Shown here: piece after piece, positions 20,637 through 50,675 of the stretch
Layout of the letters: each line of letters starts with the position of its first letter
How positions within the stretch are numbered: position 1 is the first letter of the stretch
Source: Candidatus Omnitrophota bacterium
GTDB taxonomy: Bacteria > Omnitrophota > Gorgyraeia > 2-01-FULL-45-10
Assembly (NCBI GenBank): GCA_020057115.1
Contig: JAGVGJ010000002.1
Coordinates: 857-64,856, forward strand
Length of the DNA stretch: 64,000 nucleotides
Direction of reading: 5' to 3'
The notes under the pieces: model-generated
Databases searched by the model: none
The model's input: the letters and a program-made list of their open reading frames with translations, nothing else
What the model was told of the DNA's origin: nothing
Position numbers and translations under genes: made by a program

Positions 20637-21620
20637 ATGGACGAGGGAAGAGGGAAGAGAGAGGAAAGAGGAATAAAAAAACTTGAGGCTGTCCGGAAAA
20701 CGAACGAGGCGCTGAAAGATTCCCTCAAAAACTGCAGGATATGCCCTCGCAAATGCGGGGTCGACAGGACTACAGGCTCGCTCGGATACTGCAGAGCGGG
20801 CGCGGAACCGATCGTCTACAGCTATTCGCCGCACCTTGGCGAAGAGCCGCCCATCTCCGGGACCCGTGGGTCCGGAACCATATTTTTCAGCCACTGCAAC
20901 ATGAAGTGCGTCTATTGCCAGAACTATTACTTCAGCCAGCTTGATAAAGGCGAGAAGGTCTCCGCTGAAAGACTCTCAAGGTTCATGCTCAAGCTCCAAA
21001 ACGAGGGATGCCACAACATTAATCTCGTAACGCCTACGCATTTCATGCCCCAGATAATGACAGCGCTGGAGCTCGCGCTTAAAGAAGGCCTCAGCATACC
21101 TATTGTTTATAACACGAGCGGATACGAACTCCCGGAGACGATAAAGCTCCTGGATGGGGTAGTCGATATATACCTGCCTGACATGCGATACTCCGCTAAT
21201 GAGGCGGCCAGGATATATTCCGACGCCCCGGATTATGTTGAGCGCGACCGGGCCAGCGTAAAGGAGATGTTCCGCCAGGTCGGCGACATGTCACTTGACG
21301 ATAACGGAGTAGCGTTAAAAGGCATCATAATAAGGCTCCTGGCCCTGCCGGAAGGCGTTTCAGGCACCATTGAAAGCTTAAGATTCATAAAGAACAGCAT
21401 ATCCCCGAATACATACTTAAGCATAATGAGCCAGTATTATCCTACGTTCAAAGCCTATAGCCACAGCCCGATCTCCCGACGGATAACTGCCGCCGAATAC
21501 AAGATTATTGTTGACGAGGCACATGAGTTGGGGTTAAATAATGGATGGATACAAGAAAGCCCCGAAGAAGAAGGCGGGCGCTTCCTGGGGACTAATATTA
21601 AACCTAAGACAGAGCTATAG
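20637..21620 (+). CDS. Radical SAM enzyme of the AmmeMemoRadiSam / PflA-like type.
   Basis: CRICPRKC...GYC N-terminal cluster and CNMKCVYCQNYYFS radical SAM motif. No AMMECR1 or MEMO1 partner gene in the window. Confidence 0.55.
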   Translation: MDEGRGKREERGIKKLEAVRKTNEALKDSLKNCRICPRKCGVDRTTGSLGYCRAGAEPIVYSYSPHLGEEPPISGTRGSGTIFFSHCNMKCVYCQNYYFSQLDKGEKVSAERLSRFMLKLQNEGCHNINLVTPTHFMPQIMTALELALKEGLSIPIVYNTSGYELPETIKLLDGVVDIYLPDMRYSANEAARIYSDAPDYVERDRASVKEMFRQVGDMSLDDNGVALKGIIIRLLALPEGVSGTIESLRFIKNSISPNTYLSIMSQYYPTFKAYSHSPISRRITAAEYKIIVDEAHELGLNNGWIQESPEEEGGRFLGTNIKPKTEL

Positions 21621-21623
21621 AAG

Positions 21624-22343
21624 ATGCCTACGAAAAAGACCTCCAAGACTAACGCAACGCAAGCGAAGCATATAGAAGCGATAACCAAGGTATCGAGGTC
21701 CATAACCTCGAACCTCTCCCTTGACGACATACTGAAACTCATAGTCACTGTCACCGCCGAAACTATGAACTCCAAGATATGCTCTCTCATGCTCTTGAAC
21801 GAAAAAGAAGGCGCGCTGGTCCTGAAAGCCACCCAGTCCATGAGCGACACATATAACAAGAAGCCGCCGCTAAAGCTCGGTGAGGGCATAGCCGGCAAGG
21901 TCGCTCTTCTGAATAAACCTATCGTGGTATACGACATATCGAAGGAATCGGAATATAAGTTCAAGGACATAGCCAAGAACGAGGGGCTGAAGTCGCTCCT
22001 ATCGGTGCCGATCGCCGTAAAGGGGCGCGTCATCGGAGCCCTCAACAACTATACGTCATTCGCGCACAAATTCACCGAAGATGAGATAAGCCTCCTTACG
22101 ACCATCGCCAATCAGGCGGCTATATTGATAGAGAACGCGGACCTCATGGTGAAGACCAGGACCATACAGGAAGAGCTTGAGACCAGGAAATTGATCGAAC
22201 GGGCCAAGGGGATACTGATGCGCGAGCAGAGCTTGAGCGAAGAAGATGCATTCCGCAAAATACAGAAGGAGAGCATGGACCTCAGGAAATCTATGCGCGA
22301 GATCGCGGAGGCCGTGATACTGATATCGAAGATGAAAAAATAG
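21624..22343 (+). CDS. GAF-ANTAR RNA-binding antitermination regulator.
   Basis: N-terminal GAF domain. C-terminal ANTAR helix motif (IERAKGILMREQSLSEEDAFRKIQKESM). Confidence 0.7.
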   Translation: MPTKKTSKTNATQAKHIEAITKVSRSITSNLSLDDILKLIVTVTAETMNSKICSLMLLNEKEGALVLKATQSMSDTYNKKPPLKLGEGIAGKVALLNKPIVVYDISKESEYKFKDIAKNEGLKSLLSVPIAVKGRVIGALNNYTSFAHKFTEDEISLLTTIANQAAILIENADLMVKTRTIQEELETRKLIERAKGILMREQSLSEEDAFRKIQKESMDLRKSMREIAEAVILISKMKK

Positions 22344-22346
22344 CTC

Positions 22347-22375
22347 TTGACGAGGCCGCGCAACTATGGTATACT
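22347..22375 (+). promoter_or_regulatory. Sigma70-type promoter (TTGACG-N17-TATACT) upstream of nadE.
   Basis: Read from the sequence. Confidence 0.45.
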
Positions 22376-22499
22376 TATTATGTAATGAAAGACAGCGAAG
22401 TCTTCTGGCAATGATCGCCGGAAGGCTTTTTATATTTACAAGGACTCAGGCGTCCGGATCCATTGATGGATTTAGGGCGCTTTCTGTTTATACGATAAG

Positions 22500-24188
22500 G
22501 TGAATACGATGGGAAAGCACATACGCATAGCGATAGCGCAGATCAATCTGACGGTCGGGGATATAGACGGCAATGTCAAGAAGATGGAGGAATACGTCCA
22601 GAAGGCCCGGACGCTTGCAGCCGACATTGTCGTATTCCCGGAGCTGGCGATACCGGGTTATCCTCCCGAGGACCTGCTGCATAAGGAGAGGTTCGTCGAT
22701 GACAATATCGCGGCGCTGAAGAAGTTCGCAAAAAGCGCGGAAGATATCCTAGTGGTTGCGGGTTTCGCCGATAAGAGGGCAGGAGATATATTCAATTCCG
22801 CGGCCGTCATATATAAAGGACATGTAAAAGGAATATATGACAAGGTATTCCTTCCGAATTACGGAGTATTTGACGAACGCAGATATTTCAAACCCGGACA
22901 GGAGGCTTCGGTCTTCAGAGCCGGGGACATGACTTTCGGGGTGAATATATGCGAGGATATATGGCATAAGGGCGGGCCGACCAAGGCGCAGGCGGCGTCC
23001 GGAGCCAGGCTTATAATAAACATAAACGCGTCTCCATATTATGCCGGAAAGACCAGGGAGAGGGAAGACGTCGTAAAAGAACGGGCGAAAGATAGCGGGG
23101 CATTCATCGTATACGCTAACCTGGTAGGAGGCCAGGACGAACTCGTATTCGACGGCCAGAGCATGGTCGTGGACAATGCGGGTAAAGTGCTGTGCCGGGC
23201 CGAGGCATTTAAAGAGGAGCTTCTGGTAGCAGATATCGAGTTGCCTGAAAACGGTTTAAAGGCAGCCGCAAAAGCGATAGTCGTAGCTGATAAAATGGAA
23301 ACCAGGACCAAGCCGTCAGCGGTCAAGAAAGATGCCAAGCCGCTTGAGCCGGTCGCTGAAGTGTATCAGGCCCTTACCGCAGGCCTTAAAGACTATGTAG
23401 CAAAGAATGGTTTTAAAAAAGTAGCCATAGGTTTAAGCGGTGGGATAGATTCGGCTTTAGTTGCCGCCATTGCCGTTGACGCGCTGGGCAAGGAGAATGT
23501 AAGCGGAGTATTTATGCCCACGCGATATTCATCCGAGGATTCTGAAATAGACGCAAAAGCGCTCGCAGCAAACTTAGGCATAAATTTCATGGATATATCC
23601 ATAGAGCACATATTCAAGATATATCTCATGACCCTTGAGCCGCATTTTGCGGGCAAAGAGCGTGACATAACGGAAGAGAACATACAGGCCAGGATAAGGG
23701 GTAATATAATGATGGCCCTCTCTAATAAATTCGGATGGCTGGTCCTGACGACAGGAAACAAGTCCGAGATGTCAACCGGCTATGCCACGCTTTATGGAGA
23801 CATGGCAGGCGGCTTCGCGGTCATAAAGGATGTCCCGAAGACGCTGGTCTATAAGCTGGCCAAATACAGGAACGGCATCTCGAAAGTCATACCGGACAGG
23901 ATCATAACAAAAGCTCCTACCGCGGAACTAAGGCCTGACCAGAAGGACCAGGACACCCTTCCGCCGTATGAGACGTTGGATGCGATATTAAAGGCATATA
24001 TAGAGGAAGACAGAGACCTTAAAGAGATAGTTGCCATGGGCTTCAATAAAGAGACAGTGCTGAAAGTCTCTAACATGGTAGATAAGAGTGAATACAAAAG
24101 GAGGCAGTCGCCTCCAGGTATTAAGATAACTCCCAAAGCATTCGGCAGGGACAGGCGGATGCCGATAACGAATAAGTACAAGCAATAA
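22500..24188 (+). CDS. nadE: Glutamine-dependent NAD+ synthetase (CN-hydrolase domain plus NAD synthase domain).
   Basis: N-terminal nitrilase-like domain (FPELAIPGY). C-terminal PP-loop SGGIDS. Confidence 0.85.
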   Translation: MNTMGKHIRIAIAQINLTVGDIDGNVKKMEEYVQKARTLAADIVVFPELAIPGYPPEDLLHKERFVDDNIAALKKFAKSAEDILVVAGFADKRAGDIFNSAAVIYKGHVKGIYDKVFLPNYGVFDERRYFKPGQEASVFRAGDMTFGVNICEDIWHKGGPTKAQAASGARLIININASPYYAGKTREREDVVKERAKDSGAFIVYANLVGGQDELVFDGQSMVVDNAGKVLCRAEAFKEELLVADIELPENGLKAAAKAIVVADKMETRTKPSAVKKDAKPLEPVAEVYQALTAGLKDYVAKNGFKKVAIGLSGGIDSALVAAIAVDALGKENVSGVFMPTRYSSEDSEIDAKALAANLGINFMDISIEHIFKIYLMTLEPHFAGKERDITEENIQARIRGNIMMALSNKFGWLVLTTGNKSEMSTGYATLYGDMAGGFAVIKDVPKTLVYKLAKYRNGISKVIPDRIITKAPTAELRPDQKDQDTLPPYETLDAILKAYIEEDRDLKEIVAMGFNKETVLKVSNMVDKSEYKRRQSPPGIKITPKAFGRDRRMPITNKYKQ

Positions 24189-24213
24189 TCTATCTAAGTA
24201 AGATAGCAACAAG

Positions 24214-24255
24214 GACAAGGATGCCCTTTCATGCGCCAAGAGAAGCGCGCGAAAG
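24214..24255 (+). terminator. Rho-independent terminator after nadE.
   Basis: CCCTTTC...GAAAGGG stem followed by T6. Confidence 0.6.
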
Positions 24256-24286
24256 GGTTTTTTATTTATAAGGCAGGTGATCTTCA

Positions 24287-24826
24287 ATGTATGAAACATT
24301 TGATGCAATGATGGCCAGGCTTTCACCGACACTTAAGCGGATAACGCACAGGATGAACGGCCATTTCACGTTCTTCAGTGATGACGACCTCTACCAGGAG
24401 GCTGTGATGCACCTCTGGATAGATTATCAGCATGACGTTTTGGGCGATAAGACGGATAGCTATATCCTCCAAGGGTGTTATTATTATCTGAAGAATTATC
24501 TTCGCATGACGCTTGATAAGGCAAAGATGGTAAGCCTATATAAGCTCATAGACGAAGACGACTGCACACTTGAAGATGTTATTACGATAAAAGGTAGGAC
24601 CGCCATGGATGCAGCGGAAGAGAGAATCATCGTTGATGACGCCACGCTTAATGGATTGACCGATAGGGAGAAAGAGGTGCTCACGCTCTCCATGGAGGGA
24701 TCAACAGTTCGCGAAATAGGTGAAAAACTTGGGATCTCTCATGTTATGGTAGTAAAATTAAGGGGCAAGTTGAAAGAGAAATACGCCAAGCTGAAGGGCG
24801 AACTGAAGAACGAGGTTACCAAATAG
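24287..24826 (+). CDS. Sigma-70-family-like protein (region 2 and region 4 HTH).
   Basis: C-terminal HTH (LTDREKEVLTLSMEGSTVREIGEKLGISHVMVVKL). Its last codons contain the GTTACCAAAT half of the conserved nitrogen box. Confidence 0.4.
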   Translation: MYETFDAMMARLSPTLKRITHRMNGHFTFFSDDDLYQEAVMHLWIDYQHDVLGDKTDSYILQGCYYYLKNYLRMTLDKAKMVSLYKLIDEDDCTLEDVITIKGRTAMDAAEERIIVDDATLNGLTDREKEVLTLSMEGSTVREIGEKLGISHVMVVKLRGKLKEKYAKLKGELKNEVTK

Positions 24827-24887
24827 CGCATATCTTTACTTGTATAGTTGTAAAAGCTGTAAAACACATTGTTGTGTAGCAAACACA

Positions 24888-24920
24888 GGCGTTCGTAGAT
24901 GAGAACGCCATATTTATTTA
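24888..24920 (+). terminator. Intrinsic terminator-like hairpin (GGCGTTC / GAACGCC) with a weak U-tract; first of two in tandem.
   Basis: Read from the sequence. Its 5' arm is part of the conserved AACAnnGGCGTTC motif. Confidence 0.45.
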
Positions 24921-24927
24921 GACGGTG

Positions 24928-24970
24928 ACGTCTTTCAATTCCATCGATGGATGAAAGACGTTTTTTATTT
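24928..24970 (+). terminator. Strong intrinsic terminator (ACGTCTTTCA / TGAAAGACGT, inner TCCATCGATGGA palindrome, T6).
   Basis: Read from the sequence. Confidence 0.6.
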
Positions 24971-24995
24971 ATAGTAATAAAAAAAGGGGCGTGAT

Positions 24996-25757
24996 ATGCG
25001 GGAACTTATAAACAGGATAATAATATCTAGCTTGGCGATAATGCTATCGTGCTTGGCGGTGAATGAGGCGCATTCAACGGCTTCCACGCACATATGGGCG
25101 CCATCTACTGACACTCAGGACTGGAAAACCGGACATGTCACTGCAGACATATATGTACCTGTAGAGACAAATCGCGATGGATCTAGGGCTCGAACGATCA
25201 CGGACGAGGGGCTAGAATTCGGTTTATTGCCGTTCAACAAGCTGAGGGCGGAAGCAGGTTTTGACTTTAAGACAGGATATGGCGACCTGGACAGCTGGCC
25301 AATGTACTTTAACGGAAAGCTCGCTATACCGGAAGACTCGTACGGCAAATTCTTCCCCGCAATAGCGATCGGCGTATATGACGTGGGAACAAGAAATGCG
25401 AAGACCAATTTTGATGTCTTCTATATAAAAGCGGCAAAGACCATTAAAGTGAAGGACCTTAACCTCGGCAGATTCTCTTTGGGATACTTCTGGGGCAACA
25501 ATGAACTTCTCCTTAATAAAGACGGCGCCAGGGACAATGAGGGCGTCTTCTGGGCCTGGGAGAGGACTATGACAGAGATAAACGACAAGCTGTGGGTCTG
25601 CATCGAATACCAGGCAACCGAATCTATCTATGGCGCATTCAACCTGGGCGGCTCATGGCAGTTTACGAAGAATATCTCTGTTCTCGGAGGTTATCAGTTT
25701 TATAATAACAAGAATTACGCCGATACATTCACTGTACAAGTAGACATAAACTTTTAA
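24996..25757 (+). CDS. Putative outer-membrane beta-barrel porin-like protein encoded directly upstream of amt.
   Basis: Signal peptide, alternating amphipathic strands, C-terminal ...VDINF with terminal Phe. Confidence 0.4.
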   Translation: MRELINRIIISSLAIMLSCLAVNEAHSTASTHIWAPSTDTQDWKTGHVTADIYVPVETNRDGSRARTITDEGLEFGLLPFNKLRAEAGFDFKTGYGDLDSWPMYFNGKLAIPEDSYGKFFPAIAIGVYDVGTRNAKTNFDVFYIKAAKTIKVKDLNLGRFSLGYFWGNNELLLNKDGARDNEGVFWAWERTMTEINDKLWVCIEYQATESIYGAFNLGGSWQFTKNISVLGGYQFYNNKNYADTFTVQVDINF

Positions 25758-25769
25758 CATGAAAGGAGA

Positions 25770-27014
25770 GTGGTTCAAATGATAAATTCTGGTGATGTTG
25801 CCTGGATCTTAGTGTCAACGGCGCTTGTCATGATGATGACGGCTCCGGGCTTGGCGTTCTTTTACGGCGGCCTGGTGAGGAGAAAGAACGTGCTCGCAAC
25901 AATGATGCAATCGTTCTTTGTGTTGTGTCTGATAAGCATTCAATGGATATTGTGGGGTTACAGCCTGGCGTTCGGGCCTGACAAGGGGCATCTTATAGGA
26001 AGCCTTGCATGGTTCGGTTTAAAGGGCGTGGGAATGGCCCCTAACCCTGATTATGCCTCTACGATACCGCATCTCTTATTTATGGCATACCAGATGATGT
26101 TCGCGGTCATCACGCCCGGGCTTATCACGGGAGCTTTTGCCGAAAGGATGAAATTCTCCGGCTACGTGATATTTACCTTATTATGGGCAACGCTCGTCTA
26201 TGACCCTGTTTGCCACTGGGTGTGGGGTATGGGTGGCTGGTTAAGAAATATGGGCGCGCTCGATTTCGCCGGGGGCACGGTCGTCCATGTCTCATCCGGA
26301 ATATCAGCTCTTGTATGCGCCTTATATTTAGGTAAGAGGCGCGGCTATGGCAAAGAACCGATGCCTCCTCACAACCTTCCTCTTACGATACTGGGTGCCT
26401 CATTATTATGGTTCGGATGGTTCGGGTTTAATGCCGGCAGCGCGCTAGGGGCAAATGAGCTTGCAGTATCTGCATTTATTGCGACAAATACAGCCGCAGC
26501 TGCAGCAGCTCTTACGTGGATGTTCATAGAATGGAAGGCCATAGGTAAACCCACGATCCTAGGCGGTGCAACAGGCGCAGTTGCAGGCCTCGTCGCCATA
26601 ACGCCAGCGGCAGGTTTCGTAACGCCGCTCTCCTCCATACTTATAGGCGTAGCGGTCGCATTCGTCTGCTACGCGGCGGTCGCCATAATAAAGCTCAAGC
26701 TTGCGTATGATGATTCGCTCGACGCATTCGGCGTCCACGGTGTAGGAGGAACCCTTGGCGCGCTCCTTACAGGACTATTCGCTCAAAAGATAGTGAATCC
26801 GGCAGGCAACAACGGGCTATTCTTCGGCAATCCGGCGCAGTTCGCGATACAAGCAACCGGTGTACTGGCCACCATGGCCTATTCAATAGTAGTGACTTTC
26901 ATCCTATTGAAAGCCATTGATGCCCTTATAGGCATCAGGGTCACTGATGAGGATGAGACTGTCGGCCTCGACATAACGCAACATGAAGAGTCGGCGTATA
27001 CGCTCTTAGACTAA
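25770..27014 (+). CDS. amt: Ammonium transporter (Amt family), copy 1.
   Basis: Canonical Amt motifs (DFAGGTVVH, GAxLxG). 414 aa. Confidence 0.9.
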   Translation: MVQMINSGDVAWILVSTALVMMMTAPGLAFFYGGLVRRKNVLATMMQSFFVLCLISIQWILWGYSLAFGPDKGHLIGSLAWFGLKGVGMAPNPDYASTIPHLLFMAYQMMFAVITPGLITGAFAERMKFSGYVIFTLLWATLVYDPVCHWVWGMGGWLRNMGALDFAGGTVVHVSSGISALVCALYLGKRRGYGKEPMPPHNLPLTILGASLLWFGWFGFNAGSALGANELAVSAFIATNTAAAAAALTWMFIEWKAIGKPTILGGATGAVAGLVAITPAAGFVTPLSSILIGVAVAFVCYAAVAIIKLKLAYDDSLDAFGVHGVGGTLGALLTGLFAQKIVNPAGNNGLFFGNPAQFAIQATGVLATMAYSIVVTFILLKAIDALIGIRVTDEDETVGLDITQHEESAYTLLD

Positions 27015-27031
27015 TATAAGGAGAATGATGC

Positions 27032-27373
27032 ATGAAACTCGTGATCGCAATTATACAGCCTCACAAACTGGAAGATGTCCTGCATGAGCTGGATACCAGA
27101 GAGATCTATCTTAGGACCGTCTCGAATGTCCTGGGCTGCGGCAGGCAGAAGGGGCGCACAGAAGTATATAGAGGAAGGAAAGAGACCGGCAACCTCCTCA
27201 AGAAGGTCCGCCTCGAGATCGCCGTGAACGAAAAATTCGTCACTCCTACGATCGAGGCCATAGCAAAAGGAGCCCGCACGGGAAACATAGGAGACGGTAA
27301 GATATTCGTTGTGGACCTTGGCCAATGCATAAGGATAAGGACCGGCGAAACCGACGGGGAAGCGATCGGATAA
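27032..27373 (+). CDS. glnK: Nitrogen regulatory protein P-II (GlnK-type, amt-linked), copy 1.
   Basis: 113 aa. T-loop RGRKETGNL (where Tyr-51 would be uridylylated in E. coli, this protein has Glu; YRG is present in the preceding turn). Confidence 0.9.
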
Positions 27374-27418
27374 TAATTAGTGGTTACCAAAAGACTACGC
27401 ATTTTACTTGTATATCAA

Positions 27419-27492
27419 ACACAGCGTAGTGTAGTGAAAAGAACAGAGGCGTTCAATTTGGTTTTATGACTAAATTGGGCGCCTCTTTTTTT
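27419..27492 (+). promoter_or_regulatory. ANTAR-type dual hexaloop hairpin element overlapping an intrinsic terminator (leader of amt-2).
   Basis: Hairpin 1 is ACAC-AGCGTA-GTGT and hairpin 2 is GAAC-AGAGGC-GTTC; both loops have A at position 1 and G at position 4. The terminator is AGAGGCG...CGCCTC followed by T7, and its 5' arm overlaps hairpin 2. Confidence 0.55.
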
Positions 27493-27544
27493 GCTCAATT
27501 TTTACTCAATTGAATACGCAGTTGAATAAAAAGAAAGGGATAAT

Positions 27545-28780
27545 ATGATCAATTCCGGAGATACTGCCTGGATCTTAGTATCGACCGCTCTTGTCATGCT
27601 GATGACGATACCCGGTTTAGCGCTATTTTACGGAGGCTTGGTCCGCAGGAAGAATGTCCTTGCCACCATGATGCAGTCATTCTTCGTATTGTGCCTGATA
27701 AGCATTCAGTGGGTACTTTTCGGCTATACGCTTTCATTCGGTCCGGACAAGGGACATATAATAGGTAACCTTGCATGGCTCGGCTTAAAAGGGGTAAGTA
27801 TCATCCCCAACGCCGATTACGCGCCCACGATACCGCACATCCTGTTCATGGCCTATCAGATGATGTTCGCGGTGATCACTCCCGGGCTCATAACAGGCGC
27901 GTTCGCTGAGAGGATGAAATTCTCAAGCTATGTGGCCTTTACCTTATTATGGGCAACACTCGTCTATAACCCCGTATGCCACTGGGTCTGGGGGACCGGA
28001 GGATGGCTCAAAACTCACGGAGTGCTCGATTTTGCAGGAGGGATAGTCGTCCACGTCACTTCGGGATTCTCGGCCCTTGCTTGCGCGCTCATCATGGGGA
28101 AGAGGCGCGGTTATGGCCGCGAGCCTATGCCGCCGCATAACCTGCCCCTTACAATAATAGGCGCAGGCCTCTTGTGGTTCGGATGGTTCGGATTTAATGC
28201 GGGCAGCGCTCTTGCGGCAAATGGCATTGCCGCAACAACATTTGTGGTAACCAATACTGCGGCTGCGGCTGCCGGGCTCACCTGGATGCTTATCGAGTGG
28301 AAAATAACGGGAAAACCCACCATACTGGGCGGGGCTACGGGGGCGGTCGCGGGACTTGCCACAATAACCCCGGCTTCAGGATTTGTCTCGCCGCTCTCCG
28401 CCATTTTAATAGGCATAGCCGCTTCCTCGATATGCTATACAGCCGTGGCTATTATCAAGCTAAAGTTCGCTTATGACGATTCATTGGATGCTTTCGGCGT
28501 CCACGGGATCGGAGGCGCGGTAGGCACGTTATCGGTAGGCCTCTTCGCGCAGAAACTTATCAACCCTTCAGGGAACGACGGGTTATTCTTCGGCAATGCT
28601 TCGCTATTCATCACGCAGGCGCTCGGAGTAATTGCGGTCATAGCTTATTCGGTAGGCCTCACGCTCATCATTTTGAAAGTCCTCGATGCGACTATAGGCT
28701 TAAGGGTGACGGATGAGGAGGAGGTTGTAGGTTTAGATATAACGCAGCATGAGGAGTCGGCGTATACTTTATTGGATTAA
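27545..28780 (+). CDS. amt: Ammonium transporter (Amt family), copy 2.
   Basis: Paralogue of copy 1 with a conserved core. 411 aa. Confidence 0.9.
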   Translation: MINSGDTAWILVSTALVMLMTIPGLALFYGGLVRRKNVLATMMQSFFVLCLISIQWVLFGYTLSFGPDKGHIIGNLAWLGLKGVSIIPNADYAPTIPHILFMAYQMMFAVITPGLITGAFAERMKFSSYVAFTLLWATLVYNPVCHWVWGTGGWLKTHGVLDFAGGIVVHVTSGFSALACALIMGKRRGYGREPMPPHNLPLTIIGAGLLWFGWFGFNAGSALAANGIAATTFVVTNTAAAAAGLTWMLIEWKITGKPTILGGATGAVAGLATITPASGFVSPLSAILIGIAASSICYTAVAIIKLKFAYDDSLDAFGVHGIGGAVGTLSVGLFAQKLINPSGNDGLFFGNASLFITQALGVIAVIAYSVGLTLIILKVLDATIGLRVTDEEEVVGLDITQHEESAYTLLD

Positions 28781-28799
28781 TATATAAGGAGGATCGAAT

Positions 28800-29141
28800 A
28801 TGAAACTCGTGACCGCAATTATACAACCCCACAAGCTCGAAGACGTATTACAGGAATTGGAAAAAGCAGAGATACATCTAAAGACCGTCTCGAATGCCCT
28901 CGGATGCGGAAGGCAGAAAGGCCGCACAGAGGTATATCGCGGCAGGAAAGAGACTGGGAACCTGCTAAAAAAGATACGCCTTGAGATCGCAGTAAATGAC
29001 CAGTTCGTGCAGCAAACCATCGACGCCATCGTGAAAGGGGCCAGAACAGGCAATATCGGCGATGGGAAGATATTCGTCGTAGCGCTTGCTGAATGCGTAA
29101 GGATACGAACAGGCGAAAAAGGAGGCCAGGCGATAGGTTAG
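28800..29141 (+). CDS. glnK: Nitrogen regulatory protein P-II, copy 2.
   Basis: 113 aa, same motifs as copy 1. Confidence 0.9.
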   Translation: MKLVTAIIQPHKLEDVLQELEKAEIHLKTVSNALGCGRQKGRTEVYRGRKETGNLLKKIRLEIAVNDQFVQQTIDAIVKGARTGNIGDGKIFVVALAECVRIRTGEKGGQAIG

Positions 29142-29217
29142 TAGAACCTTTGGCTTGTTACCAAAAATATGTATTTTTTACTTGTAATATCAGATGAAAA
29201 GTTGTATAGTATTTCTA

Positions 29218-29312
29218 GCACATTGCAGTGCGAAGTAAGGCGTAGACGACCAAATAGAACATTGACGTTCACTAATTATCTCGAAATGCCGAGATAATGT
29301 GAACGTTTTTTT
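29218..29312 (+). promoter_or_regulatory. ANTAR-type dual hexaloop hairpins plus an intrinsic terminator in the glnN leader.
   Basis: Hairpin 1 is GCAC-ATTGCA-GTGC and hairpin 2 is GAAC-ATTGAC-GTTC. The terminator is ACGTTCACTAATTATCTCG / CGAGATAATGTGAACGT followed by T7. Confidence 0.5.
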
Positions 29313-29340
29313 ATTTTATGGTATAATACGGGAGGTTTAA

Positions 29341-31593
29341 ATGAGCATAAGACAAGAGACATTGAGCAGGATCAATGGGATCGACATTGGAGGTGGCAAG
29401 ATGGGTGTGAGGCAGGAGACATTGAACAAGATAAAAGGCGTAGAGCTCAAGAAGATCGACATGCCTAAGAAGGTCTCTTCATATTTCGGCGAGAACACTT
29501 TCAGCATAACTGCCATGCAGAAGTACCTGTCAAAGAATACCTTTGACGCTTTTAAGAAATGGATGTCGGAAGGCGTTACGATATCCAAGGACCAGGCCGA
29601 TGAGATAGCCAATGCCATGAAAGACTGGGCTATGTCAAAAGGCGCCACATACTACACCCACTGGTTCCAACCTATGACAGGCCTCACAGCTGAAAAACAC
29701 GACAGCTTCATATCTATCACAGGGCCGGGAAAGGTAATAGAGAAGTTCTCCGGTTCAAAACTGATACAGGGTGAGCCTGATGCAAGCTCATTCCCATCCG
29801 GTGGCATACGCGCTACATTTGAAGCGCGCGGCTATACCGCATGGGACCCGTCAAGCCCGGCATTCATAATCGAATCACAGCTCGGGAAGACCCTTTGCAT
29901 ACCGACAATATTCATCTCCTATCACGGAGAGGCTCTTGATAAGAAATTGCCGCTCCTGCGTTCGGATGAGGCGCTTTCAAAGGCGGCCGTAAATCTCCTA
30001 AAGCTCTTCGGGCATAAGGATGTAAAGAAGGCCTTCTCCACATGCGGTCCGGAACAGGAATATTTCCTGATCGACAAGAATTACTACAACTTAAGGCAAG
30101 ACCTGGTCATGACAGGCCGCACGCTAGTCGGAGCCGCTTCTCCCAAGGGACAGCAGCTTGAAGACCAGTATTTTGGGACGATCAAGGAACGCGTAGTAAA
30201 CTATATGTTCGAGGTCGCGGAAGAGGCATATAAGCTGGGCATACCTGTAATGACAAGGCATAATGAGGTCGCTCCGCATCAATATGAGTTCGCTCCGATC
30301 TTCGAAGAATCCAATATAGCAGCAGACCATAACCAGCTCTTGATGGAGATAATGAAGAAGGTGGCTCTAAGACATAACATGGTCTGTCTCCTCCACGAGA
30401 AACCGTTCGCCGGCATTAACGGCAGCGGCAAGCATGTGAACTGGTCGTTGGGGGATGATAAGGGCAACAACCTCCTCAATCCCGGAGACACCCCTGAAGA
30501 CAGCCTTCAGTTCCTTGCCGTGCTCGCGGCAGTATTGAGAGCCGTATACCTGCATTCGGATCTTCTGCGCGCAAGCGTTGCCATGGCGGGAAATGAGCAC
30601 CGTCTCGGCGCCAATGAGGCCCCTCCGGCCATCATAAGCGTATTCCTGGGAGCGCAGCTTACAAAGGTCCTGGACGTGATCGAAAAGGGGGCAAAGTCCA
30701 GCGTATCGAAGAAAGATATCATCGATCTCGGGATCGCCAGGCTGCCAAGGTTCAATAAGGATGCGACCGACAGGAACAGGACTTCGCCATTCGCATTTAC
30801 AGGCAATAAGTTTGAGTTCAGGGCTGTCGGTTCAAGCCAGAACATATCTACGCCGATCACGATCGTTAACACGATCATCGCTGATTCGTTGGACTATGTT
30901 GCCGATAAGATCAAGAAGGCATCTAGCGGCAAGGATTTCAACACAGCGGCTCTGCAAGTAATAGCCCAGATAATCAAGGAGACTAAGGATATCCGCTTCG
31001 AAGGCAATAATTATGCCGAAGAGTGGGTGAAAGAGGCCAAGAAGAGAGGGCTGCCGAATATAGCCTCGACATACGAATCGCTAGAGGCTCTCACTAAAGA
31101 GAAGAACATAGCATTATTCGAAAAATACAAAGTCTTCTCAAAAGAGGAGCTCGTAGCCCGCTACCACATATGGATACACACCTATGACCTGATCCTAGAG
31201 ATAGAAGCCAATACGCTAGTCGAGATGGTCAATGCGAGCATCGTCCCGGCAGGTTATGAATACGAAAAACTCCTGGCCACCAATCTGGGCAGGCTGGCAG
31301 AACTAAAGAAGGTTGCCGGCATGAAGCTCGACACAGCGGTATTAAAGGACAAGGTCGAGCACTTAAAAGACGTTTCATCGAAGATATATTACGTAAGACG
31401 TAATACGGGCGAGATGGTAAAGCTCCTTGAAAAGGCTCACACATTGTCGGCTGAGAAGCGCGCCGAGCTGTATTTCGAGGAGTTAAAGCCGCTTATGGAC
31501 CACATCAGGAAGCACGTGGATCAGCTCGAATGCGTCGTTTCAGACGAGCATTGGGATCTGCCGAAGTACAGAGAGATGTTGTTCATTAAATAG
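29341..31593 (+). CDS. glnN: Glutamine synthetase type III (GlnN); the first 20 codons appear tandemly duplicated.
   Basis: About 730-aa GSIII architecture. MSIRQETLSRINGIDIGGGK is followed by MGVRQETLNKIKGVELKK. GGGAGG RBS before 29341. Confidence 0.8.
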   Translation: MSIRQETLSRINGIDIGGGKMGVRQETLNKIKGVELKKIDMPKKVSSYFGENTFSITAMQKYLSKNTFDAFKKWMSEGVTISKDQADEIANAMKDWAMSKGATYYTHWFQPMTGLTAEKHDSFISITGPGKVIEKFSGSKLIQGEPDASSFPSGGIRATFEARGYTAWDPSSPAFIIESQLGKTLCIPTIFISYHGEALDKKLPLLRSDEALSKAAVNLLKLFGHKDVKKAFSTCGPEQEYFLIDKNYYNLRQDLVMTGRTLVGAASPKGQQLEDQYFGTIKERVVNYMFEVAEEAYKLGIPVMTRHNEVAPHQYEFAPIFEESNIAADHNQLLMEIMKKVALRHNMVCLLHEKPFAGINGSGKHVNWSLGDDKGNNLLNPGDTPEDSLQFLAVLAAVLRAVYLHSDLLRASVAMAGNEHRLGANEAPPAIISVFLGAQLTKVLDVIEKGAKSSVSKKDIIDLGIARLPRFNKDATDRNRTSPFAFTGNKFEFRAVGSSQNISTPITIVNTIIADSLDYVADKIKKASSGKDFNTAALQVIAQIIKETKDIRFEGNNYAEEWVKEAKKRGLPNIASTYESLEALTKEKNIALFEKYKVFSKEELVARYHIWIHTYDLILEIEANTLVEMVNASIVPAGYEYEKLLATNLGRLAELKKVAGMKLDTAVLKDKVEHLKDVSSKIYYVRRNTGEMVKLLEKAHTLSAEKRAELYFEELKPLMDHIRKHVDQLECVVSDEHWDLPKYREMLFIK

Positions 31594-31623
31594 GGTCCAG
31601 GGGCCAGGGTCAAGGGTCCAGGG
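31593..31623. repeat. Copy of the GC-rich heptad-repeat element (GGGTCCAGGGGCCAGGGTCAAGGGTCCAGGG), forward arm only.
   Basis: 26/27 identity to 50604-50630. Sits between the glnN stop and the ANTAR hairpins. Confidence 0.6.
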
Positions 31624-31639
31624 AAAAGAAAAAATTATA

Positions 31640-31730
31640 AAGCACAGGGTCGTGCTTAGATAGAGACAAAAGAACAGAGGCGTTCAAAAAGGTCGAATCG
31701 TACCGGCCTGTTTGAACGCCTCATTTTTAT
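31640..31730 (+). promoter_or_regulatory. ANTAR-type dual hexaloop hairpins plus an intrinsic terminator in the leader of the GATase-gltBD operon.
   Basis: Hairpin 1 is AGCAC-AGGGTC-GTGCT. A 15-nt linker follows. Hairpin 2 is GAAC-AGAGGC-GTTC. The terminator is GAGGCGTTCAAA...TTTGAACGCCTC followed by a U-tract. Confidence 0.55.
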
Positions 31731-32441
31731 ATGAAAAAAATACTGATAATAAAACATGTGGACATAGAGGGCCCGGGGACGATCGAAGAGTTCCTTGTCG
31801 ATTCGGGCTGGAATGTGTCGCAAATTAACCTCGGCTCAGGCGAGATGCTGCCGGCATCGCCGGAAGGGATGGATGCGGTCATATGTATGGGCGGCCCGAT
31901 GAACGCCTACGAGGAAGAGAAATATCCGTTCCTTAAGAATGAGGATGCATTCATTAAGCAGGTAATAGCTTTCAGGATCCCTTTCCTCGGCCTATGCCTG
32001 GGCGCCCAATTGCTCGCAAAGGCTGCGGGCGCAAAAGTGATGAAGGCGCCCGCTAAAGAGATCGGCTGGTACCAGGTAAGCCTTACAAAGGATGGAAAAA
32101 AAGACAGGCTCTTTAGGAGCGCTCCTTCTAACTTTATGGTATTCCAATGGCATGAAGACACTTTCGAGCTGCCCGAGAATGGCGTATTGCTGGCGAGATC
32201 CGACCGGTGCGAGAACCAGGCATTTCGCATCGGCAAGAATGCGTACGGCCTGCAATTCCATATCGAAGTAACACCGCCTATGATAGAAAGCTGGCTGACC
32301 GAAGGCAATATACAGAAGAATGACTCCAGGGCCATGCTAGATGAAGCATATTTAAGGAAAGAATCATATAGCAGCCAGGCTAATTCAATATACATGGATT
32401 TCGCTGATATAATAAAAAGCTCGGAAATTAGAAGAGCATAA
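31731..32441 (+). CDS. Class I glutamine amidotransferase domain protein.
   Basis: GLCLGAQLL nucleophile Cys motif. His/Glu in the C-terminal part. Confidence 0.6.
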   Translation: MKKILIIKHVDIEGPGTIEEFLVDSGWNVSQINLGSGEMLPASPEGMDAVICMGGPMNAYEEEKYPFLKNEDAFIKQVIAFRIPFLGLCLGAQLLAKAAGAKVMKAPAKEIGWYQVSLTKDGKKDRLFRSAPSNFMVFQWHEDTFELPENGVLLARSDRCENQAFRIGKNAYGLQFHIEVTPPMIESWLTEGNIQKNDSRAMLDEAYLRKESYSSQANSIYMDFADIIKSSEIRRA

Positions 32442-32480
32442 AAAATTTTTAAGTTTTAATGCCTAAGCATTAGGCATGAG

Positions 32481-32870
32481 GTGCTAAAGATGATAACCAT
32501 CTTGATAGATGACAACGAAAACAAGTTGAAAGAGCTGCTGAGCGGATTTTTGCGCAGAGAAGGATATGTCACCCAGCCGGACGAGAATGACCCTAGCATA
32601 ATAAAAGTCGTGCCGAAGGAGATCCACGACGGCAAATTCTCCTTAAAGAACAAGATCGTCGAGCTAGAAAACTCTTTATATTATCAGAAAAAGGGTGTAT
32701 TATATAAATCCATTTTAGAAAATGTCGAGAAGCCCATGATAGAGCATGCTCTTGAGCGCACCGAAGGAAATCAGCTCAAGGCGGCAAAGATGCTGGGCAT
32801 GAACCGGAATACGATACGCGCAAAGATAAAGAAGCTCGGCATAGACTTAACGAGATGGAAGGACCATTAA
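32481..32870 (+). CDS. Small Fis-type HTH (HTH_8) DNA-binding protein resembling an NtrC C-terminus.
   Basis: C-terminal QLKAAKMLGMNRNTIRAKIKKLGI. Stop is 1 nt before the gltB start. Confidence 0.5.
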   Translation: MLKMITILIDDNENKLKELLSGFLRREGYVTQPDENDPSIIKVVPKEIHDGKFSLKNKIVELENSLYYQKKGVLYKSILENVEKPMIEHALERTEGNQLKAAKMLGMNRNTIRAKIKKLGIDLTRWKDH

Positions 32871-32871
32871 A

Positions 32872-35800
32872 ATGACGAATTACCATCTTCCGAAAAAACA
32901 GGGACTTTACGATCCGGCATACGAACATGATGCCTGCGGGGTAGGCTTTGTCTGCAACATAAAAGGCGAGAGGTCAAACGAGATCGTAAAACAGGGACTC
33001 GAGGTATTGAACCGCCTCGCTAACAGGGGCGCTACGGGATCCGACCCTAAAACCGGCGACGGCGCGGGCATCCTCATGCAGATGCCGCATGAGTTCTTCG
33101 CTAAGGCATGTCAGAGCGCTAAGATAGATCTCCCGTCTTCGGGCGATTATGCTACAGGCCTGGTATTCCTGCCAACGGATACAAAAGAACGCGAGTTCTG
33201 TAAAGGCGTATTCAAGGCGGCCGTTGAAAAAGACGGGCAGGCGCTTATCGGCTGGCGCATTGTGCCGGTAGATGATTCGGACATAGGCCAGACCGCCAAA
33301 CAGACAGAACCCGTCATCGAGCAGCCATTTATCAGAAAGGCAGACGGCATAAAAAACTCTCTGGAATTCGAGAGGCGCCTCTACATAATAAGAAAGAAAA
33401 TAGAGAACGCTATACGCTCGTCTGATATTAAGCAGAGATCCTTCTTCTACATAACCAATCTCTCAAGCCGCACATTCTCGTATAAGGGCCTCTTGATGCC
33501 GCACCAGCTGGGCAATTTCTTCCCGGACTTAAAAGAGAGCTCCATCCAAAGCGCTATATCCCTTGTCCATTCACGCTATAGCACCAACACCTTCCCTACA
33601 TGGGACTTATCGCAGCCATTCCGTTTCCTTGCCCATAACGGCGAGATAAACACTCTTCGGGGAAATATCAACTGGATGGCCGCAAGAGAAGGGCTGCTCA
33701 AGAGCAAGCTCTTCGGGAAAGATATCAATAAGATATCTCCTATAATAGTTCCGGGCGGTAGCGACTCTGCGGCTCTAGATAATGTATTTGAGCTTCTGGT
33801 CCTATCCGGCAGGCCCATACATCATGCGATGATGATGCTCATCCCGGCGGCATGGCAGCAGGATAAGCTCATGGACAACAAGCTTAAAGATTTCTATCGC
33901 TACCACGCCTGCCTCACCGAGCCGTGGGATGGACCGGCAGCGATAGCATTTACTGACGGAACAAGGATAGGTGCAGTCCTTGATAGAAATGGCTTAAGAC
34001 CGGCTCGTTATATAGTTACAAAGACCGGTATGGTCGTTATGGCCTCGGAAGCCGGAGTGCTTGATATTGACGCAAAAGATATTGCTATATCAGGCAGGCT
34101 TGAGCCAGGCAAGACATTCTTCATAGACACCGAAGCCGGGCGCATCATAAATGATGCGGAGCTTAAGAAGGAGACGGCTGAAAAACAACCTTACTCGAAA
34201 TGGCTCAAGGATCACCTGAAGAACTTGGATGATCTGCCGGGACATAAAGCTGCTAAAGGGAAGACCGGCGATACGCTCACAGCCTTAAAGGCATTCGGAT
34301 ATACGCGGGAAGACCTGCGGATGATAATCAAGCCGATGGCCGCAAAAGGCCAGGAGCCTATCGGCTCCATGGGCAATGACGCGCCTCATGCTGTCATATC
34401 CAAGAAGCCGCATCTCTTATATACATACTTCAAGCATCTTTTTGCCCAGGTCACCAATCCTGCCATAGACCCGATAAGGGAAGAGCTTGTTATGAGCCTC
34501 GACAGTTATATCGGACCCGAAGAGAACCTGCTTGATGAGACACCGGAACATTGCAATAAACTCAAGGTTTCAAAGCCCATACTTAGCAATGAGGAGCTTG
34601 AAAAGATACGTCATATCAAGGTGAATGGCTTCCGGACCCGCACTATCCCGATATTGTTCAGCGCTTCGGACAGCAAAGACTTCACAAAAACCCTTGATGC
34701 CATATGCAGCCAGACCGTGAAAGCGATCAGGGATGGATACACTTTCGTCATATTGAGCGACCGCGGAGTGAATAAAGCTAAAGCTGCGCTGCCGGCCCTT
34801 TTGGCCACAGGGGCCGTCCACCAATACCTTATCAAGAAAGCCATGCGCACGCAGATAGGCATAATAGTGGAGAGCGCCGAGCCCAGAGAAGTACACCATT
34901 TCGCTCTTCTCTTCGGTTATGGCGCAGATTGCGTAAATCCATATCTTGCTTACGAAGCAGTCGAATACCTGGTAAAGGAAGGCGAGCTTGATATCGACGC
35001 GAAGAACGCTGTGTCTAATTACAAAAAAGCGATCAATAAAGGCATCCTTAAAATACTTTCGAAGATGGGCATCTCTACATTACAGAGCTACCGCGGAGCG
35101 CAGATATTCGAGGCATTGGGTATAGGCGAGAAAGTAATAGCTAAATGTTTTACAGGAACTCCTTCCCGTATAGGCGGCGTAGACTTCGAGGTGCTCGGCA
35201 AGGAATGCCTCATAAGGCATGAAGATGCATATCCGAAAGACGCCGTACGATCTCCGATCCTTCCGCCCGGCGGCATATATCAATGGCGCATGGACGGGGA
35301 TTTTCACCTTTGGAATCCCGACTCGATTGCAGCCCTCCAGGATGCCACAAGATTCAATGACCGGGAAAGATATAAGGAATTTGCAAGGCTGATAAATGAC
35401 CAGTCAGATAATCCGTGCACATTGAGAGGGTTGCTGCGATTTAAGCCGGGAAAGCCTATCACAATAGATGAAGTAGAGCCTTTCGAGGAGATAGTGAAGC
35501 GTTTCGCTACCGGAGCTATGAGCTTCGGTTCGATAAGTAAAGGCGCCCACGAGACGCTCGCCATCGCTATGAACCGCCTGAAAGCAAAGTCCAATACCGG
35601 AGAGGGCGGGGAAGATCCTGCAAGGTTCCAGTCTCTCCCGAACGGTGACTCTGCAAGGAGCGCTATCAAGCAAGTCGCATCCGGCAGATTCGGCGTGACC
35701 ACAAATTATCTTATAAACGCGGACGAGCTCCAAATAAAGATAGCGCAAGGCGCAAAACCCGGAGAGGGCGGGCAGCTGCCCGGGCACAAGGTAAGCGCCA

Positions 35801-38836: not shown

Positions 38837-38843
38837 TGATCTT

Positions 38844-50603: not shown

Positions 50604-50675
50604 GGGCCCAGGGGCCAGGGTCAAGGGTCCGGTAAAATTTTATTCTGGACCCTGGACCCTTGTCCCTTGACCCTT
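50604..50675. repeat. GC-rich heptad-repeat element forming a long hairpin in the atpB-atpE spacer: forward arm GGGCCCAGGGGCCAGGGTCAAGGGTCC, reverse arm GGACCCTGGACCCTTGTCCCTTGACCCTT.
   Basis: 26/27 identical to 31593-31623. A related GGGTCCAGGGTCC repeat lies at 3386-3400. Confidence 0.6.

Follow-up and report, generated by a model that had tools for sequence, protein, structure and literature searches.

How are the genes for ammonium uptake and assimilation switched on in Candidatus Omnitrophota? The question is raised by a 64,000-nucleotide stretch of one such genome (contig JAGVGJ010000002.1, positions 857 to 64,856; here called the window), in which ammonium transporter (Amt), PII, glutamine synthetase (GS), glutamate synthase (GOGAT) and NAD synthetase (nadE) genes follow a gene for a regulator with a GAF and an ANTAR domain. 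An earlier reading made from the letters alone (the sequence-only reading) had proposed that these genes are controlled by RNA-level antitermination. Our analysis suggests, with a probability of roughly 70%, that the block from 21.6 to 39.8 kb is a nitrogen-assimilation regulon gated by antitermination, to which a sigma factor adds a feed-forward tier.

Four operons of the block begin behind a leader with an intrinsic terminator. Within the 64 kb, the core motif GAACANNGNCGTTC has three exact copies (27441, 29257 and 31672) and a fourth that differs by one mismatch (24881); every copy is on the + strand and belongs to one of these four leaders. Motif search and folding thus confirmed the motif and the intrinsic terminator that had been placed in each of them. 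The leader fragments fold at -36 to -40 kcal/mol (z -4.2 to -7.7 against shuffles), and their minimum-free-energy (MFE) folds are the terminators, with U-tracts. In each leader, the 3' arm of the small GAAC/GTTC hairpin (P2) is at the same time the start of the 5' arm of the terminator, and a second hairpin, P1, of the form (A/G)CAC-hexaloop-GTG(U/C), lies upstream. The sequence-only reading had seen the second hairpin in three of the four leaders; those three stand, but the count was too low, because P1 acacATTGTTgtgt is present in leader 1 as well and all four leaders are dual. In all eight hexaloops at the dual sites, position 1 is A and position 4 is G, the pattern that had been read from the letters. 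The leaders are laid out as follows.

24815-24966, + strand: leader 1 (porin-amt1-glnK1), with promoter motif, P1, P2, a third hairpin and two terminators
24815-24842, + strand: leader 1 promoter motif GTTACC-N16-TACTTG
24864-24877, + strand: leader 1 P1 acacATTGTTgtgt, with a 4-nt linker to P2
24882-24893, + strand: leader 1 P2
24888-24919, + strand: leader 1 terminator 1, with a weak U-tract
24920-24933, + strand: leader 1 third hairpin agacGGTGACgtct
24927-24966, + strand: leader 1 terminator 2, forming a single unit with the third hairpin (24920-24966)
27383-27492, + strand: leader 2 (amt2-glnK2), with its promoter motif at 27383-27410
27419-27432, + strand: leader 2 P1 acacAGCGTAgtgt
27441-27454, + strand: leader 2 P2 gaacAGAGGCgttc
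27445-27492, + strand: leader 2 terminator
29157-29312, + strand: leader 3 (glnN), with its promoter motif at 29157-29184
29218-29231, + strand: leader 3 P1 gcacATTGCAgtgc
29257-29270, + strand: leader 3 P2 gaacATTGACgttc
29265-29312, + strand: leader 3 terminator
31640-31728, + strand: leader 4 (GATase-fis-gltBD-nadE), without the promoter motif and presumably reached by read-through from glnN
31640-31657, + strand: leader 4 P1 aagcacAGGGTCgtgctt
31672-31685, + strand: leader 4 P2 gaacAGAGGCgttc, the same sequence as leader 2 P2
31677-31728, + strand: leader 4 terminator

Two hexaloop stem-loops with A1 and G4, the second overlapping a terminator, are the published target of ANTAR proteins, an architecture defined for EutV, NasR and AmiR (PMC3369931, cited here from excerpts, as are PMC3369936 and PMC4676874). 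The match to this target that had been claimed held when the leaders were set against the excerpted consensus. Judged from their sequence, the leaders are very probably under antitermination of the ANTAR type. They could instead be protein-independent attenuators or an undescribed metabolite riboswitch, with the RNA itself choosing between hairpin and terminator; the leaders do fold far better than shuffles, and a glutamine riboswitch family exists. However, Rfam gave no match over the whole window at the gathering score and, at E up to 10 in 21500-33000, two chance-level matches of no relevance. Moreover, the conserved part consists of two hairpins of 3-6 bp with linkers of 4-33 nt and has no pocket-like core, the small hairpins are energetically outcompeted by the terminators (MFE folds; RNAalifold without P2), and the motif equals the ANTAR protein-binding consensus as excerpted from PMC3369931, all of which makes a ligand-sensing or self-sufficient RNA highly improbable.

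The block also contains four extra single hairpin-terminator units (22390-22431, 22442-22489, 24213-24263 and 24920-24966), so that it holds, together with the four leaders, eight terminators, each with an overlapping small hairpin. Hairpin and terminator coordinates overlap in all eight units and the terminators are strong. In the single units, loop position 1 is A, T or G and position 4 is G. Two of the units form the leader of nadE, which directly follows the GAF-ANTAR gene; the regulator was therefore wrongly placed 8 kb upstream of its targets, since its gene lies 2.5 kb from the first of the four leaders and is itself followed at once by a regulated one. The two hairpins of the nadE leader are parted by a whole terminator, which speaks for counting them as two single units rather than one classical dual site. 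Three of the single units and the nadE promoter are given here, the fourth being part of leader 1 above.

22347-22375, + strand: nadE leader promoter, canonical sigma-70 type (TTGACG-17-TATACT with TG)
22390-22431, + strand: nadE leader unit A, hairpin agacAGCGAAgtct (22390-22403) overlapping the terminator at 22397-22431
22442-22489, + strand: nadE leader unit B, hairpin ggacTCAGGCgtcc (22442-22455) overlapping the terminator at 22449-22489
24213-24263, + strand: nadE-to-sigma spacer unit, hairpin ggacAAGGATgccc (24213-24226) overlapping the terminator at 24223-24263

The sigma-70 type of promoter and unit A of the nadE leader are both found in the related loci L001, L003 and L006, and the core motif plus terminator lies between GAF-ANTAR and nadE in eight sources (the window and seven loci). 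The spacer unit between nadE and the sigma gene is present in L003 as well, and in L015 and L017 the sigma gene has full dual hairpins in front of it; the stem of ggacAAGGATgccc carries a conserved A.C mismatch. The tandem nadE leader, two terminators each with its own hexaloop hairpin, is likewise kept in L001, L003 and L006. Two of the extra terminators have the palindrome TCCATYGATGGA at their apex (22459-22470 and 24940-24951). Allowing one mismatch gives 8 matches where 1.6 are expected, and the palindrome may be either a protein site or no more than a stable extension of the stem.

Conservation was followed in a comparative set of 83 sources, namely the window and related loci, amounting to 1.29 Mb. 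A generic scan for any 3-bp stem with an ANNGNN loop had proved too noisy, giving dozens of matches inside genes, and was replaced by a family-specific pattern and by covariance models. The strict dual-hairpin text pattern was found 21 times on the gene strand and never on the other strand, with about one match in shuffles, and the core motif followed by a terminator was found 49 times on the + strand versus 3 times on the - strand. A first covariance model (R1), built from nine sites, recovered the four leaders of the window (E 1e-8 to 1e-11) and, weakly, the nadE leader (22387-22458, E 0.046). A further R1 match at 52502-52557 (E 0.2) lies inside a 502-aa open reading frame (ORF, 51981-53489) without a terminator and is therefore attributed to chance. 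In the 82 related loci R1 found 23 sites, throughout on the gene strand, and a second model (R2) was rebuilt from these sites of other genomes, with no window sequence. R2 recovered all four window leaders (E 1e-6 to 3e-4), did not find the nadE leader again at E<=1, and gave 42 matches in the 83 sources, 41 of them on the gene strand. Behind nearly every one stands a terminator built on the GCGTTC/ACGTTC arm, and the genes 3' of the matches are those of GS-I and GS-III, Amt, PII (glnK), porin, GATase, GltB, NadE, the sigma factor, glutamate dehydrogenase (GDH) and GAF-ANTAR itself. The covariance models thus find the motif in orthologous leaders of related genomes, and the hairpins adjoin GAF-ANTAR orthologues across Omnitrophota and other phyla, as the sequence-only reading had expected.

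Pairing on the 42-site alignment also argues for a conserved RNA structure: 95.7% of cells are paired. The outer pair of P1 is GC in 18 sites, AU in 17 and GU in 6, its second pair CG in 32, UA in 6 and UG in 2, and the second pair of P2 is AU in 20, GU in 13 and GC in 6. Changes on both sides of a pair were seen in four of the eight pairs, in 31 cells versus 7.3 in shuffles, and none of 500 shuffles reached 31; the hexaloop hairpins are therefore conserved in relatives with compensatory changes in their outer pairs, and the inner two pairs of each stem are invariant. In the hexaloops of relatives G4 is found in 49 of 49, position 1 is A in 38 of 49 and G in the rest, and C6 of P2 is kept in 27 of 28. 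Some relatives depart from the loop size, with 7-nt P1 or 8-nt P2 loops, and the linkers between P1 and P2 vary from 4 to 33 nt.

These data bear on two other explanations. The first takes the terminators for constitutive insulators or partial attenuators, with the shared motif coming from common descent or leader duplication. Leaders of one genome are indeed alike, and three P2 hairpins of the window are nearly identical. However, the motif persists across phyla whose regulators share only about 50% identity and whose linkers and terminators have diverged in sequence, and it shows compensatory changes. Essential assimilation genes with a terminator between promoter and start codon would, moreover, be expensive to keep unless a means of read-through existed, and we give this explanation very little weight. 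The second sees the inverted repeats as DNA operators of a dimeric transcription factor, such as one with a Fis-type helix-turn-helix (HTH), and the terminators as incidental. Both GAAC-N6-GTTC and CAC-N6-GTG are palindromic as DNA, and an uncharacterised HTH_8 protein is conserved in the block. Yet 23 G.U cells but not one A.C cell occur in the seven inner pairs, which speaks for RNA structure on the gene strand and not for a DNA palindrome. Loop conservation is asymmetric (A1, G4, C6), the sites are strand-specific (41 of 42), and they are placed 3' of the promoter motif, in every case sharing nucleotides with a terminator arm. We consider DNA operators extremely improbable and retain antitermination as the preferred reading of the leaders.

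The RNA motif alone was further used as a query on metagenome contigs, a motif-first scan that yields proportions and not totals. Among the matches listed, a terminator containing the P2 arm follows in 56 of 123, and 48 of these 56 terminator-linked sites lie in blocks of amt, PII, GS, GOGAT, porin, nadE or sigma genes, as against 6 of the 67 matches without a detected terminator; the remaining matches without a terminator look like chance. GAF-ANTAR genes occur in seven of the listed motif-first loci, each at a site linked to a terminator or to nitrogen genes, and no other ANTAR domain was found in the 735 kb of these loci.

Which protein would bind these leaders? The window offers one candidate. 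A tblastn search over the 64 kb bore out that the GAF-ANTAR gene is its sole ANTAR gene, and no NtrBC, NtcA or GlnR was found among the other large ORFs of the window, as had been stated, the KdpD-like sensor and the Fis-type HTH being the only other regulators seen. The ANTAR domain (PF03861) stands C-terminally after a long helix, scores 74.7 bits against a cut-off of 27.3, and aligns to Rv1626 (1s8n, the closest), 6wsh and NasR (4akk). An AlphaFold2 (AF2) model with a predicted local distance difference test score (pLDDT) of 85 shows the GAF domain, a 51-residue helix (152-202) and two further helices. The N-terminal domain is GAF and no Response_reg match was found in Pfam or NCBIfam, which places the regulator outside the two-component subfamily of receiver (REC)-ANTAR proteins (EutV, GnfR, PdtaR); nor did Pfam detect a NIT nitrate/nitrite sensor domain in it, and its alignment to NasR 4akk is confined to the ANTAR part. 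By analogy, its RNA mechanism is expected to be the same as in REC-ANTAR regulators.

More than 100 protein clusters have the regulator at 72-92% identity; over 7,500 relatives were scored, and at least 514 species genomes encode one. Its best protein matches, and the genome records with relatives, are Candidatus Omnitrophota by name. GS, GOGAT, amt, PII or nadE genes adjoin the regulator in many of the 80 genome loci, and two long contigs repeat the gene order of the window: radical SAM, GAF-ANTAR, nadE, sigma, porin, amt, glnK, GS (I or III), Fis-HTH and gltB. The gene map of the window, on which Pfam and NCBIfam scans agreed with the sequence-only reading, is the following.

20637-21620, + strand: radical-SAM gene, with weak matches to NrdG-like activases
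21624-22343, + strand: GAF-ANTAR one-component regulator, 239 aa (Pfam GAF_2 78.8 bits, ANTAR 74.7 bits)
22500-24188, + strand: glutamine-dependent NAD synthetase, nadE (Pfam CN_hydrolase and NAD_synthase)
24287-24826, + strand: sigma-70 family factor of the extracytoplasmic function (ECF) type, 179 aa (TIGR02937; Pfam Sigma70_r4)
24996-27373, + strand: operon 1, a 253-aa protein, Amt and PII (Pfam)
25770-27373, + strand: the Amt-PII pair of operon 1 (Pfam)
27545-29141, + strand: operon 2, Amt and PII (Pfam)
29341-31593, + strand: GS-III, glnN (Pfam)
31731-39827, + strand: GATase-1, a Fis-type HTH protein (129 aa), GltB, GltD and a small NadE (Pfam/NCBIfam)

We consider it quite probable that the GAF-ANTAR protein of the window is the regulator of these leaders. 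They might instead be ANTAR targets of another regulator elsewhere in the genome, for example a REC-ANTAR protein, the neighbouring GAF-ANTAR having other targets. In favour of this, 64 kb of the genome is visible, the characterised nitrogen-related ANTAR regulators are REC-, pseudo-REC- or NIT-linked, and in the motif-first loci L100, L181 and L186 the leaders have no GAF-ANTAR gene within 4-7 kb. On the other side, the gene order is tight and widely kept, with the regulator followed directly by a regulated leader; the GAF-ANTAR gene itself stands behind a dual hairpin and terminator in at least eight lineages; and no second ANTAR domain was seen in the window or in the listed motif-first loci. 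We therefore hold a different ANTAR regulator to be unlikely.

The dual hairpins and terminators 5' of the GAF-ANTAR gene imply autoregulation in the lineages concerned. These sites are the following.

L011, 4571-4615: dual hairpin and terminator 5' of the GAF-ANTAR gene
L014, 5194-5239: the same
L015, 9865-9907: the same
L018, 3417-3458: the same
L024, 6310-6360: the same
L026, 3331-3378: the same
L032, 190-238: the same
L069, 7928-7974: the same

The promoters of these leaders are of the sigma-70 type in L011, L014, L015, L032 and L069 and of the GTTACC-N16-TACTT type in L018. Unlike in these lineages, the GAF-ANTAR gene of the window lies directly behind the radical-SAM gene, with a gap of 4 nt, and the two genes abut or overlap in L001-L007 as well, which suggests co-transcription. 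Two GAF-ANTAR paralogues share one neighbourhood in L011, L013, L036 and L069, and in L036 an NtrC-type sigma-54 activator lies between the second paralogue and nadE.

What the regulator may sense is indicated by the relatives of its GAF domain. NifA GAF domains respond to nitrogen status, and to 2-oxoglutarate in Azotobacter NifA. Against NCBIfam, the domain of the window matches PtsP best (NF008283, E 3.7e-21, residues 25-200) and then NifA (E 2.4e-13). Its best solved relatives are the PtsP GAFs 3trc (E 7.5e-15) and 3ci6 and Aquifex NifA-like GAFs, and 3trc and 3ci6 also take Foldseek ranks 1-3 for the AF2 model (template-modelling score of the target 0.81-0.88). As the PtsP GAF binds glutamine, which inhibits autophosphorylation of EI-Ntr (PMC4848567), glutamine, perhaps with 2-oxoglutarate, is a reasonable candidate ligand, with the reservation that an identity of only 23-27% does not allow the ligand to be transferred with confidence. 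The chance that the signal is low glutamine, or nitrogen limitation, appears to us about even.

Control at the RNA level accounts for only part of what the block contains. Antitermination, as proposed, is supported, but control is not purely at the RNA level; the sequence-only reading overlooked a second layer: the ECF-type sigma gene and a promoter motif before three of the four leaders. The sigma protein scores 48.8 bits with TIGR02937 against a cut-off of 42.9 (residues 4-165), matches Pfam Sigma70_r4 and r4_2, and has the layout of ECF (group 4) factors, with sigma regions 2 and 4 only in about 180 aa. The motif GTTACC-N16-TACTTG stands 5' of P1 in leaders 1-3 (24815, 27383 and 29157) and is absent at leader 4. 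In the window and related loci GTTACC-N16-TACTT has 20 matches, 20 of 20 on the gene strand and every spacer exactly 16 long; 19 of the 20 lie in sources that carry the sigma gene, which is present in 14 of the 83 sources. In the motif-first set, 42 of the 56 true sites among the matches listed have the motif 11-37 nt 5' of P1. Canonical TTGACA-17-TATAAT promoters serve the leaders of the nadE and sigma genes and that of the GAF-ANTAR gene in other lineages, and the sigma gene's own leaders combine sigma-70 promoters, not GTTACC-N16-TACTTG, with hairpin and terminator. The sigma gene lies between nadE and a porin-like gene, with no anti-sigma domain seen among these neighbours. From this co-occurrence we think it likely that the ECF sigma drives the GTTACC-N16-TACTTG promoters.

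We propose the following mechanism. The anatomy, conservation and covariation of the sites, their association with genes and the domain identities are observed; the binding protein, its ligand, the direction of regulation and the sigma-promoter pairing are what we infer. By default, each leader RNA would stop at its intrinsic terminator. Under nitrogen limitation, the PtsP/NifA-like GAF would perceive low glutamine, possibly high 2-oxoglutarate, and switch RNA binding on, and a GAF-ANTAR dimer would bind the hexaloop hairpins CAC-ANNGNN-GTG and AC-ANNGRC-GU. Since the 3' arm of P2 is the 5' arm of the terminator, binding would keep the hairpin closed and block the terminator, and the polymerase would read on. 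From the sigma-70 promoter, the two units of the nadE leader and the one in the nadE-sigma spacer would gate expression of the ECF-type sigma, which in turn would act on the GTTACC-N16-TACTTG promoters of porin-amt-glnK, amt-glnK and glnN. Each transcript started by this sigma would again require the antiterminator, and glnN transcripts would cross a fourth gate into GATase-fis-gltBD-nadE. The outcome would be a coherent feed-forward (AND) circuit. More tentatively, and with somewhat less than even confidence, Omnitrophota and several other mostly uncultured phyla may share a two-tier nitrogen circuit without NtrBC/sigma-54, in which a glutamine-sensing GAF-ANTAR first releases and then gates an ECF sigma.

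A dual hairpin also stands directly 5' of the GDH gene in five other lineages, with an overlapping terminator visible in four of the five and not evident in L037.

L027, 14281-14317: dual hairpin upstream of GDH
L036, 10739-10775: the same
L037, 2277-2322: the same
L042, 10735-10777: the same
L058, 13369-13410: the same

These sites complicate a simple reading as induction under nitrogen limitation. Several further points weigh against the proposed regulon. It contains NadE, which consumes glutamine, and in other lineages GDH; neither suits a simple logic of nitrogen limitation, and this makes it uncertain which way the response runs. The loci L004-L083 were picked via the regulator gene, an ascertainment bias that the motif-first scan offsets in part, and about half of the motif-first matches listed are themselves due to chance. 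Upstream of the leaders in L100, L181 and L186 the regulator is missing, so that its adjacency is frequent and not universal. Covariation was counted on alignments (A3, A4) fitted to the model and, as the inner two pairs of each stem never vary, it rests on the outer pairs. P2 is thermodynamically marginal, and RNAalifold predicts P1 alone on the 42-site alignment; this weakness fits a dependence on protein, yet adds no independent support. Loop position 1 is T or G in some of the single units. The pairing of sigma factor and promoter rests on co-occurrence, with no anti-sigma gene evident, and with 64 kb of genome in view a second ANTAR protein or NtrC/sigma-54 elsewhere is possible. Every in-silico test proposed with the sequence-only reading was favourable, and the in-silico evidence supports a GAF-ANTAR antitermination regulon well.

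Several other features of the window were recorded. The 253-aa protein of operon 1 has no Pfam match, and its equivalent in L001, at the same gene position, is a BBP2 porin. The 129-aa protein (32481-32870) is essentially one Fis/NtrC-type HTH_8 DNA-binding domain, in many loci its gene keeps its place directly 5' of gltB, and the protein may be a third regulator. Beyond the small NadE, the gene string runs on into a PPDK_N-like gene, to 42397. The KdpD-like protein (47035-49233), adjoining kdpA, has KdpD, Usp, DUF4118 and GAF_3 domains, and no histidine-kinase catalytic domain is among the Pfam matches listed for it. Finally, CCAGGGGCCAGGGTCAAGGGTCC is an exact 23-nt G-rich repeat in two copies (31597-31619 and 50608-50630), each a few bases past a stop codon (of glnN and of the ATP-synthase A-chain gene), with zero matches in shuffles.

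If the two-tier reading is true, this would be the first GAF-ANTAR regulator with an assigned signal and regulon, in a class that is common and, according to the ANTAR literature consulted, uncharacterised. The sigma factor would then be, to our knowledge, the first ECF sigma dedicated to ammonium assimilation. The analysis suggests how ammonium uptake and GS/GOGAT may be controlled in uncultured phyla, among them Omnitrophota, Desantisbacteria, Elusimicrobiota and metagenome-assembled genomes of Nitrospirota, and nitrogen regulons in metagenomes can be annotated with the promoter and hairpin motifs as markers. The compact design, a sigma factor behind an antiterminator-gated terminator, could find reuse in synthetic biology. 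Because the locus supplies the protein, a defined RNA consensus, a likely ligand and the complete set of targets, in vitro tests of the class are within direct reach, and the main value of the locus is as a ready-made test system for GAF-ANTAR proteins and for a circuit of sigma plus antiterminator.

How new is this system? That no GAF-ANTAR nitrogen regulon had been characterised agrees with our literature searches, but the novelty was overstated, as ANTAR nitrogen targets were published in 2012. Searches on a GAF-ANTAR nitrogen regulator, on nitrogen regulation in Omnitrophica/Omnitrophota and on an ECF sigma linked to amt/GS/PII found nothing relevant, which is not proof of absence. No GAF-ANTAR protein had been characterised in 2012 according to the excerpts of PMC3369931; the one-component ANTARs studied by 2020 were PAL and NasR only (PMC7496416); and the table of a 2025 review has AmiR, NasR, EutV and Rv1626 and no GAF-ANTAR (PMC12591593). 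ANTAR-type leaders 5' of PII, ammonium transporter, GS and glutamate synthase genes are described for several phyla, with 13 ANTAR sites in Desulfotomaculum acetoxidans and up to 13 sites in six transcription units in one genome (excerpts of PMC3369931; PMC3369936 for the leaders). Given these predictions and the experimental precedents of GnfR in Geobacter and NitR in clostridia, the principle of ANTAR nitrogen control is not new.

The predicted leaders of D. acetoxidans, D. reducens and Pelobacter carbinolicus stand at the same types of nitrogen gene as here (Ramesh 2012; Stewart 2012, PMC3369936); they belong to other phyla, and the excerpts assign no GAF-ANTAR to them and report no dedicated sigma factor or promoter link. 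EutV/EutW of Enterococcus faecalis (Ramesh et al. 2012) is alike in its two A1/G4 hexaloop stem-loops, the overlap of P2 and terminator and the use of several leaders, and its closing pairs are sequence-specific in the excerpted account (PMC3369931), as the inner pairs are invariant in this family too. As far as those excerpts go, EutV differs in being a kinase-activated REC-ANTAR response regulator of ethanolamine genes, whereas here a one-component GAF-ANTAR is found, the stems are strongly conserved in sequence (CAC/GUG, AC/GU), C6 of P2 is nearly invariant and extra single units occur.

NitR of Clostridium acetobutylicum and C. saccharobutylicum is, in C. acetobutylicum, an antiterminator of ammonia assimilation, as proposed here, but belongs to Firmicutes, involves an antisense RNA as well and is compared with the REC-ANTAR Clo1313_2030 of C. 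thermocellum (excerpts of PMC4676874). NasR of Klebsiella oxytoca is also a one-component protein, with a sensor, a long helix and ANTAR, and has a two-hairpin A1/G4 leader; it differs by its NIT sensor for nitrate/nitrite, its single target operon nasF and transcription that depends on NtrC/sigma-54. PtsP (EI-Ntr) and NifA, whose GAFs are the best sequence and fold matches of the sensor domain, have a PTS phosphotransferase or a sigma-54 AAA+ activator as output in place of an RNA-binding domain. Finally, in Geobacter sulfurreducens, GnfK/GnfR includes an ANTAR antiterminator that relieves premature termination at nifH, glnK and amtB, with CAGGCAANGGCGCC as the conserved RNA sequence, and is layered on a separate control of initiation, a cascade like the one proposed here (PMC2995071). 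There, the antiterminator is a phosphorylated response regulator, initiation is due to sigma-54 and GnfM, and the process served is nitrogen fixation, not GS/GOGAT (PMC2995071). In conclusion, compared with these systems, the new elements of the locus are the GAF-ANTAR sensor type, the coupling to a sigma factor and the phylum.

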